Source of the DNA: Ignavibacteriales bacterium
GTDB lineage: Bacteria; Bacteroidota; Ignavibacteria; UBA10030
Assembly: GCA_026390575.1 (NCBI GenBank)
Contig: JAPLFR010000015.1
Coordinates: 107,101-171,100, forward strand
Direction of reading: 5' to 3'
Length of the DNA stretch: 64,000 nucleotides
Shown here: one piece after another, positions 41,127-45,183 of the stretch
Layout of the letters: each line of letters opens with the position of its first letter
How positions within the stretch are numbered: the first letter of the stretch is position 1
Notes under the pieces: model-generated
What the model saw: only the letters and a program-made list of their open reading frames with translations
Database searches by the model: none
What the model was told of the DNA's origin: nothing
Program-made: the position numbers and the translations under genes

Positions 41127-41447
41127 ATGGGAACATCAAAGAAAGAAGCTTTTAGTAATAGTCAGAATCGGCTTGCTGATTTAGCGAAAGCCCTGGCGCA
41201 TCCGGCGCGCATCGCGATCCTCGAATTTCTTGCCAAGAAGGATACATGCATCTGCGGGGATATCGTCGAAGAACTTCCATTATCGCAGGCAACTGTTTCA
41301 CAGCATCTTGCCGAGTTGAAACGCGTCGGTCTTATTAAAGGTGATATTGAAGGACCGCGAGTCTGTTATTGTATTAATCAGAAAGCATGGGGCGAGGCGA
41401 AACAACTCCTATCTCAATTTCTTGTTAATGCAAAAAATTGTTGTTGA
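41127..41447 (+). CDS. arsR: ArsR/SmtB-family metalloregulator (copy 1) with C-terminal vicinal cysteines (…NAKNCC)
   Basis: HTH LAHPARIAILEFL…CICGDIVEELPLSQATVSQHL. The ORF tool's TTG start at 41076 is replaced by ATG 41127 (MGTSKKEAF…). Confidence 0.8.
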   Translation: MGTSKKEAFSNSQNRLADLAKALAHPARIAILEFLAKKDTCICGDIVEELPLSQATVSQHLAELKRVGLIKGDIEGPRVCYCINQKAWGEAKQLLSQFLVNAKNCC

Positions 41448-41504
41448 TATTTTTTTACCCTAACCAATCGTAATATTGCGATAAACAATAATTGGAGAAA
41501 ATAT

Positions 41505-42314
41505 ATGAACACGGAACAAGAAATAAAGGAGATGGTAAAAGAGAAATATGGAGCCATCGCCGAACAATCAAAACAACAGAACCAGTCTTCCTGCTGCGGG
41601 AGCACATGTGGATGTTCAAATGTCGAGTTTTCCATTATGGCAGAAGATTACAAAAAACTTCCCGGGTACGTTGCTGATGCCGATCTCGCATTAGGGTGCG
41701 GGTTGCCGACGGAGTTTGCTCAGATCGAACCGAGTGACACCGTCGTTGATCTTGGTTCGGGCGCGGGAAATGATTGCTTTATTGCACGCTCTATTGTAGG
41801 CGAGACCGGTCGGGTCATCGGGATCGATATGACGGAAGCAATGATTGCCAAAGCAAAAGCAAATGCTGTAAAACTTGGATTCACGAATGTAGAATTTCGT
41901 CTCGGTGATATCGACAACATGCCGGTTGAAGACAACACGGCCGATGTCGTTGTGAGCAATTGTGTGATGAACCTTGTCCCCAACAAACAGAAAGCATTTT
42001 CTGAAACATTCCGTATTATTAAGCAAGGCGGACATTTCAGCATCTCGGATATTGTTCTGCAAGGAGAGCTTCCGGATGATTTGCGCAACGAAGCGACATT
42101 GTATGCAGGATGTATTTCCGGTGCAGTTCAAAAAGAAGAGTATTTACGCATTATTAAAGAAGCAGGATTTACAAACATCGTCGTTCAAAAAGATCGCAAG
42201 ATCGATATTCCGAATGAAATACTAGCAAAGTTTCTTTCAGTCGAGTTACTAAGAGAGTACAAAAAAAGCCACATTGGTATTTTTAGTGTTACAGTGTATG
42301 CGGAAAAACCATAA
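41505..42314 (+). CDS. arsM: Arsenite S-adenosylmethionine methyltransferase ArsM-like
   Basis: Class I SAM motif VVDLGSGAGNDCF, N-terminal Cys cluster SSCCGSTCGCS, conserved Cys in the C-terminal half. Lies in the ars operon. Confidence 0.8.
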   Translation: MNTEQEIKEMVKEKYGAIAEQSKQQNQSSCCGSTCGCSNVEFSIMAEDYKKLPGYVADADLALGCGLPTEFAQIEPSDTVVDLGSGAGNDCFIARSIVGETGRVIGIDMTEAMIAKAKANAVKLGFTNVEFRLGDIDNMPVEDNTADVVVSNCVMNLVPNKQKAFSETFRIIKQGGHFSISDIVLQGELPDDLRNEATLYAGCISGAVQKEEYLRIIKEAGFTNIVVQKDRKIDIPNEILAKFLSVELLREYKKSHIGIFSVTVYAEKP

Positions 42315-42378
42315 AAGATTTTTATCAAAAAAGACAGTACTCTATAAAAATTGAAAAGTTGAAAAACAGTACCCCAGA

Positions 42379-43239
42379 ATGAATAAACCTATTTCTGAAA
42401 TTATTCAACAACGCTTCTCCTGTCGCACATATCTTGATAAACCCATTGGAGAAGATGACCGGCGAACAGTGATGGATTTTCTAGAACTGAACCGCACAGG
42501 ACCTTTTGGAACCCAATCGCGGTTTGCACTCATTGCAGCGACCGAGTACGATCGAAAATCTCTCAAGGGACTTGGTACTTATGGTTTCATCAAGAACGCA
42601 ACAGGTTTTATTGTTGGAGCAGTGGAACATGGATCAAAAAACCTAGAAGATTATGGATACCTCTTGGAACATGCTGTCCTCGTTGCGACTGACATAGGGT
42701 TAGGGACATGTTGGCTTGGAGGATCCTTTACAAAGAGCAGTTTTGCAAAAAAGATTTCAGCAACAAGCACAGAAATAATACCGGCGGTTACAGCAATCGG
42801 ATATATCGCAGGCAACGATAATATCAGAGGTCAGATACGCAAGCGTGCGGGCGCACAGCACCGACTTCCCAAGGAAAATTTATTCTTTGATAAGTTTTTT
42901 GGAAATCCAATTAATGAAGAAAATATCGGCATGTATGCGCAGGTGCTCGAAATGGTTCGCTGGGCGCCTTCAGCTTCAAACAAACAACCCTGGCGGCTTG
43001 TTCGAAACGGGAATGCATGGCATTTCTATCTCCAGCGAACAAAAGGATATGGAAAAGGCAGTCTGATATTCAATTTATTGCGGCTTGCAGATTTGCAACG
43101 AGTGGATATGGGTATTGCGATGTGCCACTTTAAATTCGCTGTGCGTGAGCTCGGTTTGCAGGGTTCTTGGATTATCGATGAACCAAAATTAACAATTCCT
43201 GAAGGTACCGAGTACACAGTCAGTTGGATTACCTCTTGA
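42379..43239 (+). CDS. Nitroreductase-family (FMN) protein
   Basis: Nitroreductase fold signatures (…RFSCRTY…, …GLGTCWLGG…). Co-operonic with arsM and arsC. Confidence 0.75.
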   Translation: MNKPISEIIQQRFSCRTYLDKPIGEDDRRTVMDFLELNRTGPFGTQSRFALIAATEYDRKSLKGLGTYGFIKNATGFIVGAVEHGSKNLEDYGYLLEHAVLVATDIGLGTCWLGGSFTKSSFAKKISATSTEIIPAVTAIGYIAGNDNIRGQIRKRAGAQHRLPKENLFFDKFFGNPINEENIGMYAQVLEMVRWAPSASNKQPWRLVRNGNAWHFYLQRTKGYGKGSLIFNLLRLADLQRVDMGIAMCHFKFAVRELGLQGSWIIDEPKLTIPEGTEYTVSWITS

Positions 43240-43274: not shown

Positions 43275-43709
43275 ATGTCAAAACGTATTCTTATTCTTTG
43301 CACCGGCAATTCCTGCAGAAGCCAAATGGCAGAAGGGTTTCTGAAGTCGTTCGATTCGAAACTGGAAATCTTTTCTGCTGGAACCAATCCAGCAGTGCGT
43401 GTTTCGTCACATGCGTATCAGGTCATGAAAGAAATTGACATAGACATCGGCGGCGGCCATCCAAAATCGGTTGAGCAATTCATTGGTGAACCGTTCGATT
43501 ATATCATCACAGTGTGTGATCATGCAAAAGAAATTTGCCCGATTTTTGCTGGAAACGTAAAACACCAGCTCCATATCGGGTTCGATGATCCGGCAGAAGC
43601 ACAAGGCACGGAAGATGAAGTGCTTGCAGTATTTCGGCGAGTACGGGACGAAATCAAAGAACAGTTTTATGAATTTTATAAATCAAAGCTGAAAGATAAT
43701 CAAGGATAG
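43275..43709 (+). CDS. arsC: Arsenate reductase ArsC, LMW-PTPase (thioredoxin-coupled) type
   Basis: P-loop [14 protein letters not shown], plus downstream Cys (VCDHAKEICP). Start taken at MSKRILIL (ATG 43275); the ORF tool's GTG is at 43248. Confidence 0.85.
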   Translation: MSKRILILCTGNSCRSQMAEGFLKSFDSKLEIFSAGTNPAVRVSSHAYQVMKEIDIDIGGGHPKSVEQFIGEPFDYIITVCDHAKEICPIFAGNVKHQLHIGFDDPAEAQGTEDEVLAVFRRVRDEIKEQFYEFYKSKLKDNQG

Positions 43710-43712
43710 CAT

Positions 43713-44876
43713 ATGGGATGCTCTGATCAAAAATGCGGATGCGGGAATACGAACGAGTTGGTTTCTATTACCAGGAAAGAAGTCAATCAGAATTATTGCC
43801 AATCACCTGCAGAAGAAGGAACCAAACCGGCAGTGATCAACCGCAATTTCATTATAGGCGCAATTCCAACTCCAGCGGGAGCAGTTCCAAAGATTACTAC
43901 TCGCTTGGATGTATCGGATTTTCTTGGTGCTGTGAAAGTACGTTGGGGCCTTGGAAGAGATCGGTATCGTATCGACCCGGGACTCTACGCTGTGGGAACA
44001 CCGAACGAACGCTCAGATGTCCTCGTGACCGCCAACTATAAGCTGTCCTTTGATAAGGTTCGCAAAAATCTCGAGGGGATGAACGTATGGCTTATGGTCT
44101 TGGATACAAAAGGAGTCAATGTGTGGTGCTCGGCCGGAAAAGGAACATTCGGAACGAAAGAACTTATCAACCGAATATACATAACTTCTCTTGACAAAAT
44201 CGTGCAGCACAGGCGCATCATTCTTCCGCAGCTTGGCGCCGTTGGTGTTGCCGCGCATCTGGTCAAAGAAACTTCCGGATATACCGTGATTTATGGGCCT
44301 GTGAGAGCGTCTGATATTCCGTCATTCATACATGCAGGATATAAAGCATCCAAAGAAATGAGGCGTGTAAAGTTTGAATGGTACGACCGCCTGAAGCTTG
44401 TCCCCAACGATCTAATATATAATCTCCGATATCTAGGCATATTGCTGGTATTCTTTTTTATTCTTTCCGGAATCAATAGAGATGGATTTTCTCTTCGGCA
44501 AGCATCCGGGCACATAGTTTTTCTTTCTCAAATAATTGTAGCAGGATATATTTCTGGAATAGTCTTGACTCCGCTCCTGCTCCCATATCTTTTGTTCCGC
44601 AGCTTTTCTTTTAAAGGACTCCTTATGGGAGTCATTGTCTCATCGATCATTGTAGCAGGAAAGTCATTTGAAAATACAATTTTTATTACTCCAACAATAT
44701 TTTTTCTTCTTTCTGGTATTTCATCATTTCTCGCAATGAATTTTACCGGAGCGTCGACATTCACATCTCTTGCAGGAGTCAAGAAGGAAATGAGAATTGC
44801 AGTGCCGGTACAAATTGCTTCTGTAGTCATTGCCGTGATTCTCATCATTCTTCATGGTACATTCTCAGGAAGGTAA
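43713..44876 (+). CDS. hgcA: HgcA-like corrinoid protein (mercury-methylation-type): N-terminal corrinoid-binding domain with cap-helix motif NVWCSAGKG, plus C-terminal 4-5 TM domain
   Basis: GVNVWCSAGKGTFGT matches the HgcA signature N(V/I)WCA(A/G)GK with Ala→Ser at +1. The C-terminal half is polytopic membrane. Starts 3 nt after the arsC stop. N-terminus is MGCSDQKCGCGN. Confidence 0.8.
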   Translation: MGCSDQKCGCGNTNELVSITRKEVNQNYCQSPAEEGTKPAVINRNFIIGAIPTPAGAVPKITTRLDVSDFLGAVKVRWGLGRDRYRIDPGLYAVGTPNERSDVLVTANYKLSFDKVRKNLEGMNVWLMVLDTKGVNVWCSAGKGTFGTKELINRIYITSLDKIVQHRRIILPQLGAVGVAAHLVKETSGYTVIYGPVRASDIPSFIHAGYKASKEMRRVKFEWYDRLKLVPNDLIYNLRYLGILLVFFFILSGINRDGFSLRQASGHIVFLSQIIVAGYISGIVLTPLLLPYLLFRSFSFKGLLMGVIVSSIIVAGKSFENTIFITPTIFFLLSGISSFLAMNFTGASTFTSLAGVKKEMRIAVPVQIASVVIAVILIILHGTFSGR

Positions 44877-44880
44877 TCCT

Positions 44881-45183
44881 ATGAACAGACTACGATATTA
44901 TTCTGAGGTTGTCACCCTCCAACTGATCCAGGAGAAGTGCAATAACTGCGGTATGTGTGTGAAGGTGTGCCCGCATGAAGTTTTTGAGCTGAAAGATAAG
45001 AAGGTTCGCATTGTCGGCCGTGATTTTTGCATGGAATGCGGCGCATGTAAAAAGAACTGTCCGCAGGGAGCGATTCTCCTTGATGTGGGAGATGGATGCG
45101 GATGTGCTGCAGGAATTATACAAGGTGCATTTAACGGTACAGCTCCAACATGCGGCGGCCCGGACGAGGTTTCTTGCAATTAA
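44881..45183 (+). CDS. hgcB: HgcB-like 2x[4Fe-4S] ferredoxin
   Basis: CNNCGMCVKVCP and CMECGACKKNCP (HgcB signature C(M/I)ECGAC), plus a Cys-rich tail GCGCAAG…TCGG…SCN. Start ATG 44881 is 4 nt after the hgcA stop. Confidence 0.8.
   Translation: MNRLRYYSEVVTLQLIQEKCNNCGMCVKVCPHEVFELKDKKVRIVGRDFCMECGACKKNCPQGAILLDVGDGCGCAAGIIQGAFNGTAPTCGGPDEVSCN

Follow-up and report, generated by a model that had tools for sequence, protein, structure and literature searches.

The protein pair HgcA and HgcB makes methylmercury, the form of mercury (Hg) that accumulates in food webs, which is why its native function matters; within the family, only Hg(II) has been proven as a substrate. In one of the closest described systems, that of Pseudodesulfovibrio mercurii ND132 (ArsR2-hgcAB, DND132_1054/1056/1057), ArsR2 (UniProt F0JBE8) controls hgcAB and responds to the arsenic (As) species As(III)/As(V) and to S-adenosylhomocysteine (SAH), not to Hg, and in a close relative of ND132 arsR2 is co-transcribed with hgcA. 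S-adenosylmethionine (SAM) was shown in 2024 to be the methyl donor of HgcAB in ND132, and the tail cysteines of HgcB have been proposed to deliver the metal. The HgcAB-like fusion proteins (NF043039) are reported not to methylate Hg. Here we describe an hgcA-hgcB pair that closes a string of arsenic (ars) genes in a 64,000-nucleotide (nt) stretch of DNA from an uncultured Ignavibacteriales bacterium (contig JAPLFR010000015.1 of assembly GCA_026390575.1, positions 107,101 to 171,100 of the forward strand), hereafter the window.

An earlier interpretation of this DNA, made from the letters without database searches (the sequence-only reading), implied that such a linkage was new. It is already published, including arsM and including metagenome-assembled genomes (MAGs) of Ignavibacteriae. 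McDaniel et al., 2020 (PMC7438021, Fig. 6) found acr3, arsC, arsR and arsM flanking hgcAB in numerous diverse putative methylators; Gionfriddo et al., 2022 (bioRxiv 10.1101/2022.10.17.512643) reported that Ignavibacteriae and Bacteroidetes MAGs encode ArsR-family regulators alongside hgcAB, in some cases together with arsC, arsB and arsM; and Peterson et al., 2025 (PMC11984097) reported arsR-like genes with acr3 and arsC ahead of transcribed lake hgcA genes. The arrangement is thus known, sister genome included: Table S4 of Gionfriddo et al., 2022 lists Ignavibacteriae fen_1300 (PLMK01000008). Because the field is already pursuing the arsenic link, and Gionfriddo et al., 2022 take as their stated premise that HgcAB is natively linked to arsenic in its role, our locus adds an example, not a discovery. 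What the present analysis adds is the cysteine spacing of the ArsR, an operator-like box conserved across phyla and a second such box within the gene string; the words operator, promoter and palindrome are absent from the main text of the 2022 paper on ND132 ArsR2. Together with one locus that has kept the box and lost its arsenic context, the conserved ArsR box is a small addition that specialists can use.

We propose, at a probability of roughly 80%, that the window carries a true hgcA-hgcB pair and that these are the last two genes of an ArsR-repressed arsR-arsM-nitroreductase-arsC-hgcA-hgcB operon in an Ignavibacteriales MAG. The DNA itself shows which genes these are, how tightly they join, and that their order and the palindromes are conserved. 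Six open reading frames (ORFs) lie on the same strand within 41127-45183, directly preceded on the + strand by the cell-division genes ftsA and ftsZ (lengths in amino acids, aa):

41127-41447, + strand: arsR, a 106-aa ArsR/SmtB repressor (Pfam HTH_5; NCBIfam NF033788, 71.7 bits against a cut-off of 55)
41505-42314, + strand: arsM, a 269-aa As(III) S-adenosylmethionine methyltransferase (NF008823 and Pfam Methyltransf_31)
42379-43239, + strand: a 286-aa nitroreductase-fold protein of TM1586 type (Pfam PF14512, E 4e-32)
43275-43709, + strand: arsC, 144 aa (Pfam LMWPc), with an alternative GTG start at 43248
43713-44876, + strand: hgcA, a 387-aa corrinoid protein (NF040863)
44881-45183, + strand: hgcB, a 100-aa ferredoxin with two [4Fe-4S] motifs (NF040864)

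The arsC stop codon, TAG, occupies 43707-43709 and the hgcA ATG begins 3 nt later; the hgcB ATG in turn lies 4 nt past the hgcA stop (44876), and purine-rich stretches, AAGGA and AGGAAGG, stand ahead of the two hgc starts. The coordinates, the 3-nt and 4-nt spacings and the motifs given in the sequence-only reading all agree with the ORF list and with the letters themselves. Its placement of hgcAB at the distal end of the ars gene string, behind junctions of the coupling type, likewise stands, and the order is repeated in related species. A consensus scan returned no excess of promoter-like or terminator-like sites inside the gene string over shuffled sequence. No canonical terminator follows hgcB, where the 147-nt spacer folds no better than its shuffles (z = -1.13). 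Scans that do no better than shuffled sequence decide nothing in either direction.

Related loci were collected by a one-genome-per-species scan, which yielded 80 loci (numbered here with the prefix L); their ORFs were searched with the window proteins and their contexts were laid out on a neighbour-joining tree of HgcA. Because these 80 are the loci most similar to the query, the sample favours the Bacteroidota/Ignavibacteriota clade.

Both hgc products pass the curated NCBI models for their families, which bears out the identities first suggested from the letters. HgcA scores 415.5 bits against the equivalog model NF040863 (cut-off 275, E 1e-124, residues 58-381), and HgcB scores 106.9 bits against NF040864 (cut-off 99). 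Within HgcA, a Pfam CdhD match covers residues 86-205, the cap helix NVWCSAGK occupies residues 136-143, with the ligand cysteine C139 followed by S140, and a Kyte-Doolittle scan marks five hydrophobic segments in residues 233-387, the predicted C-terminal membrane helices. The N-terminal extension, MGCSDQKCGCGN, is rich in cysteine (C3, C8, C10) and conserved in the clade; it corresponds to the CU/CC (cysteine- or selenocysteine-containing) HgcA extension described by Haft 2022 and is the cysteine form, since it has no in-frame TGA. The solved relatives of HgcA are all CFeSP (corrinoid iron-sulfur protein) large subunits, at about 45 bits (PDB 4DJD, 45.7). NCBI already holds a protein identical to the window HgcA, under that name and from an Ignavibacteriales MAG, and the same locus is present on 19 assembled contigs.

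Two other identities were considered for HgcA. Against the model of the HgcAB-like fusions (NF043039) it scores 194.5 bits, under the cut-off of 285, and its ORF is separate from that of HgcB; against the gamma-subunit model of the acetyl-CoA pathway it reaches 73 bits for a cut-off of 306. The sequence-only reading had named placement with CFeSP or with fused non-methylators as the outcome that would count against it. Since HgcA fails both of these models, its curated-model scores place it with neither.

The same reading singled out two features of the pair as deviations, and both fall within known variation. The first was the serine that stands in place of alanine after the ligand cysteine. 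The published high-stringency definition of hgcA lists six motifs, NVWCSAGK among them; this variant occurs in 8/83 loci, including all five of the Ignavibacteriota subclade and three unrelated lineages, and an alignment of HgcA shows either serine or alanine at this position in close relatives. The second was the tail of HgcB. HgcB carries two CX2CX2CX3CP motifs (C20/23/26/30 and C50/53/56/60), CNNCGMCVKVCP and CMECGACKKNCP, followed by C73, C75, C91 and C99. Its GCGCAAGII segment holds C73 and C75, of which C75 aligns with the cysteine of GVGCAAGII in other HgcBs and takes the position of the strictly conserved Cys73 of ND132, about 12 residues past the second cluster motif. The tail, ...TCGGPDEVSCN, contains C91 and C99 and differs from the ...GPDEG(P/T)CCN of the closest relatives by one change of cysteine to serine. 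The terminal cysteine pair is indeed gone, as had been noted, and one of its two cysteines is kept (SCN for CCN). In ND132, HgcB stays fully active when C94A or C95A is introduced singly, and activity is lost in the double mutant only. A tail one residue away from the relatives' CCN, in a family where one tail cysteine was enough in ND132, is not the departure that it had been taken for.

A short hgcB call was seen in L007 (9163-9511), where the source caller lists a 69-aa domainless gene at the place of hgcB. The stop-to-stop ORF there scores 215 bits as HgcB, and contig L008, with the same HgcA as L007, has a normal 101-aa hgcB; the short call is probably a gene-calling issue.

The first gene of the string encodes a repressor with cysteines at C41, C43, C80, C82 and, at its very end, C105-C106. 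The terminal pair had been put forward as the sensing site. In an alignment of 33 loci this CC is missing from many hgc-linked ArsRs; the conserved cysteines are instead those near the start of helix 3 and in the YC motif, which speaks against that assignment. C41/C43/C80/C82 show the 39-residue spacing reported for C47/C49/C86/C88 of ND132 ArsR2, and the same four-cysteine pattern is found in the hgc-linked ArsRs of L071 and L088 (labelled Deltaproteobacteria). The second CxC is not present in the other three ArsRs of the window.

Ahead of and behind arsR lie two operator-like palindromes, which we call O1 and O2:

41083-41118, + strand: promoter-like site and O1, with -35 TTGATT at 41083-41088, a 17-nt spacer and -10 TATTAT at 41106-41111 (consensus scan)
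41466-41483, + strand: O2, an ArsR-box-like palindrome, AATCGTAATATTGCGATA, in the arsR-arsM gap, a 3-mismatch match to O1

O1, TATCGTATTATTACGATA at 41101-41118, reads TATCGTA-TTAT-TACGATA, that is, 7-nt arms around a 4-nt centre. It overlaps the -10 element, whose TATTAT lies inside the palindrome, and ends 8 nt ahead of the arsR ATG. The O1 region would act as both promoter and operator. The palindrome noted here in the sequence-only reading is real, with its 7-nt arms and a match count above chance: at three mismatches or fewer, the window holds 4 matches where 0.08 are expected, a number reached in 0/100 shuffles. O1 is identical at -26..-9 in L005, L007, L009 and L038 (five species with the window), while the flanks have diverged, and the TTG of the -35 element is kept at equal spacing among the relatives that bear O1. 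O2 has been conserved throughout the five Ignavibacteriota loci; in L009 it is a perfect palindrome. Both O1 and O2 were detected by pattern search, and neither was returned when 40960-45420 was scanned for inverted repeats with default-like settings. The claim of a single operator with no internal promoter is therefore incomplete: with a second palindrome in the arsR-arsM gap, conserved in five Ignavibacteriota loci, a second ArsR-controlled start before arsM is possible, and O2 may be either a second promoter or an auxiliary site.

The box extends well beyond the close relatives. Of 33 hgc-linked arsR genes, 20 have TCGTA-N4-T(A/G)CGA just upstream with at most one mismatch; among random 230-nt windows from the same loci, 0.8% contain one. 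L071 and L088 carry it too, adjoining a perfect TTGACA. L010 (7812-9334), an Ignavibacteriota MAG, has the identical box and a flanking TGAAAC motif directly ahead of hgcA-hgcB, where neither arsR nor any ars gene lies within 8 kb and the neighbours are secreted repeat proteins on the opposite strand. Since the box is kept before hgcA where ars genes are absent, the regulatory link to hgcAB appears to have been retained there. Three Bacteroidales loci, L012, L019 and L035, have a variant palindrome, ACGTA-N4-TACGT, about 50-64 nt ahead of arsR; its replacement of TCGTA-N4-TACGA suggests that operator and regulator co-vary.

The linkage itself is equally widespread in the clade. At least one of arsC, arsM, acr3 and arsP lies on the same strand within 5 kb of hgcAB in 23/34 Bacteroidota/Ignavibacteriota loci and in 8/46 loci of other phyla, and a further 6 and 3 loci, respectively, have arsR only. 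The usual form in Bacteroidota/Ignavibacteriota is arsR ... arsC-hgcA-hgcB-acr3, and the gene order of the window, right after ftsZ, is repeated in species with an HgcA identity of 66-75%. In L012, L019, L061 and L064, arsC or acr3 is joined to hgcA by a junction of 1-3 nt or an overlap of 4 nt; these are clear cases, the only ones used, as the measurement of gaps is rough where an unrecognised gene precedes hgcA. Judged from these gene contexts, such an arrangement is what the Bacteroidota/Ignavibacteriota HgcA clade normally has. The position before hgcA can also be taken by other genes. In L082 (5731-7985), a Prolixibacteraceae MAG, a 410-aa ArsC-ArsM fusion is followed by a CcdA/DsbD-type protein with paired cysteines right before hgcA, and a gene of about 1 kb occupies that position in L020 (7293-7994), L024, L029, L031 and L047 as well.

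ArsM scores 356.4 bits against NF008823 (cut-off 263) and has an N-terminal CC together with the cysteines of GCG, SNCV and GCISGA, which we take to correspond to the As-binding cysteines of the characterised enzyme. ArsC is of the low-molecular-weight-phosphatase (LMWP) type. Its best solved relative is Bacillus subtilis ArsC 1JL3 (103 bits), with which both its CTGNSCRS loop (CX5R) and its downstream cysteine pair, VCDHAKEICP, align; because it falls under the cut-off of the thioredoxin-coupled equivalog TIGR02691 (121.9 against 174.3), our assignment goes no further than an LMWP-type arsenate reductase-like protein. The nitroreductase gave weak matches only in PDB and NCBIfam, and no assignment closer than the TM1586 family. 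The slot between arsM and arsC that it fills is variable: L007, like the window, has a nitroreductase there, L005/L006 have an ArsN2-like acetyltransferase, and L038 has the two genes together. Brevundimonas is known to have a nitroreductase-arsC-exporter cluster that acts on roxarsone.

Based on these comparisons, we propose that a dimer of the window ArsR binds TCGTA-N4-TACGA at O1, where it would cover the -10 element, and probably also at O2. As(III), produced in part by ArsC, would bind the ArsR cysteines and cause release of the repressor, by analogy with ND132 ArsR2. The six genes would then be read as one message, in which the 3-nt and 4-nt junctions should couple translation of hgcA and hgcB to that of arsC. 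HgcA would serve as the membrane-anchored corrinoid methyl carrier and HgcB as its two-cluster ferredoxin. If the pair works as in ND132, HgcB would reduce HgcA to the Co(I) state and HgcA would take a methyl group from SAM. The methyl group would finally be passed to a thiol-bound soft metal(loid) delivered by a tail cysteine of HgcB.

Several points weigh against this proposal. Co-transcription and the start of transcription are predictions from sequence, and no canonical terminator follows hgcB to mark the 3' end of the unit. O2 may mark a separate start before arsM. The likeness of the repressor to ND132 ArsR2 draws on cysteine spacing and on the proteobacterial intermediates. HgcB clears its model cut-off narrowly, and in the literature we found no Hg-methylation assay of any member of this clade.

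Among the other explanations, the one that survives best, and that we regard as possible though improbable, is that regulation is shared without shared chemistry: hgcAB would sit in a metal-resistance island because sulfidic, metal-rich habitats select for both, and HgcAB would not act on arsenic at all. The phylogeny of HgcA is marked by horizontal transfer, the island in the window is a mosaic of four ArsR-headed units, the arsM-arsC slot varies from locus to locus, and L010 has hgcAB without any ars gene, all of which fits such a history. What it explains less well is the recurrence of tight junctions in different combinations (arsC-hgcA, acr3-hgcA, arsM-hgcA and ccdA-hgcA). The ArsR box also stays with hgcAB in L010, where the ars genes are gone, and ND132 keeps the control by ArsR2 without nearby ars genes.

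We consider it unlikely that arsenic is the native substrate, with HgcAB acting as a corrinoid-dependent arsenic methyltransferase, or as another arsenic-carbon enzyme, on As(III) or methylarsenite supplied by ArsC and ArsM, and Hg methylation being a side reaction. Linkage to ars genes and control by the ArsR box are conserved across phyla, as this idea would predict. Most Bacteroidales operons are arsC-hgcA-hgcB-acr3 without arsM, so that HgcAB sits where a methylase could sit. In ND132, it is As and not Hg that induces hgcA, and deletion of hgcAB makes the strain more sensitive to As(V); SAM, moreover, is the methyl donor of HgcAB as it is of ArsM. Yet ND132, which lacks arsM and has As-induced hgcAB, made no mono- or dimethylarsenicals, and its hgcAB deletion strain is no more sensitive to As(III). 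The window operon already encodes a full ArsM, the usual downstream partner of hgcAB is acr3, the pump for As(III), and not arsP, the pump for methylarsenite, and we found in the literature no biochemical test of As with HgcAB. In its strongest form the idea would make Bacteroidota/Ignavibacteriota HgcAB a dedicated arsenic enzyme of an ArsR-box regulon, transferring methyl groups from SAM through the corrinoid to As(III) or methylarsenite, with Hg methylation an accidental by-product; on the same evidence, we hold this to be speculative and improbable.

It is also doubtful that the string is read as two transcripts, with arsR autoregulated from O1 and arsM through hgcB expressed from a second ArsR-controlled promoter at O2. 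The conservation of O2 in five Ignavibacteriota loci would fit a promoter, as would its centre, TAATAT, which is placed like TATTAT in O1. Against this, no acceptable -35 element lies 16-18 nt from TAATAT, the consensus scan gave no site there, and O2 might just as well serve as a roadblock or as an auxiliary binding site. It is very improbable that the pair is a paralogue that does not methylate, having been inactivated or diverted through the change from alanine to serine after the ligand cysteine and the loss of the terminal cysteine pair of HgcB: both changes exist and HgcB is only 8 bits over its cut-off, but NVWCSAGK is on the accepted list and is common to the whole subclade and three unrelated lineages, HgcB keeps one cysteine of the relatives' CCN as well as C91, single C94A or C95A mutants are fully active in ND132, and HgcA fails the model of the non-methylating fusion family.

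A true hgcA-hgcB pair at the end of an ArsR-repressed operon thus remains our preferred reading, and this operon is the first of four same-strand ArsR-headed units that together (41127-57838) make up an arsenic island of about 17 kb. The other three are:

45331-48695, + strand: unit 2, with arsR, an arsE-like thioredoxin, arsP, a second arsE-like gene, a thioredoxin, a CcdA/DsbD-type membrane protein and an 85-aa ORF
between units 2 and 4, + strand: unit 3, with arsR, an AhpD-like gene, a zinc-ribbon gene, two YlbF-like genes, a 278-aa ORF and an FtsX/ABC pair
53721-57838, + strand: unit 4, arsR-arsD-arsA-arsC2-acr3

Unit 2 begins with a near-consensus promoter (TTGACA-17-TATATT with an upstream TG, 45331-45359). 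Directly after it, and before the second arsR, comes a palindrome that differs from O1 (ATTTCGT-N6-ACGAAAT at 45360-45379), presumably the operator of the second ArsR, which is of the canonical ELCxC type. The acr3 of the window is the last gene of unit 4, about 11.6 kb downstream of hgcB. On the other side of the operon, a gene of the 23S_rRNA_IVP four-helix-bundle family (38461-38817) lies between ftsA and ftsZ; it is found in L001 and L005 and not in L007.

Because they place HgcAB under an arsenic-type repressor beside arsC and arsM, operons of this kind are good material for tests of the arsenic link. O1 and O2 provide two candidate binding sites for testing, and TCGTA-N4-TACGA could serve to predict ArsR-controlled hgcAB in metagenomes. 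The relatives also form a natural comparison series, in which hgcAB has arsM beside it, lacks arsM, or has no ars gene at all and still the box.

Set beside the systems already described, the locus stands nearest to that of Ignavibacteriae fen_1300 (L009, PLMK01000008), whose HgcA is 74% identical to the window's and which has the same arsR, nitroreductase, arsC, hgcA and hgcB, the same 3-nt junction and both O1 and O2. In L009 the arsM start reads ATA (~6553-6660) and no ArsM ORF was detected there, while O2 is intact; the arsM of the window is intact. In that genome arsM thus appears to be decaying while hgcAB stays. The ars-linked hgcAB relatives have acr3 directly after hgcB, whereas in the window three ArsR-headed units intervene, and their HgcB ends in CCN where that of the window ends in SCN. 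The HgcAB-like fusions (NF043039) are homologous over both parts, but the window has two separate ORFs, which score 194.5 and 56 against the fusion model, both under the cut-off of 285. The large subunit of CFeSP (AcsC/CdhE) of the Wood-Ljungdahl pathway shares with HgcA a homologous corrinoid-binding domain; unlike it, HgcA is without the N-terminal [4Fe-4S] or TIM-barrel part and has a cysteine-containing cap helix and a predicted five-helix membrane domain.

In ND132, as in the window, hgcAB has a repressor gene of the ArsR family upstream of it and on its strand, and the cysteines of the window ArsR show the 39-residue spacing reported for the four-cysteine motif of ArsR2, a likeness of spacing and not of alignment. 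The window ArsR adds a terminal CC, and whereas the ND132 locus is without ars structural genes, hgcAB in the window ends a string of ars genes.

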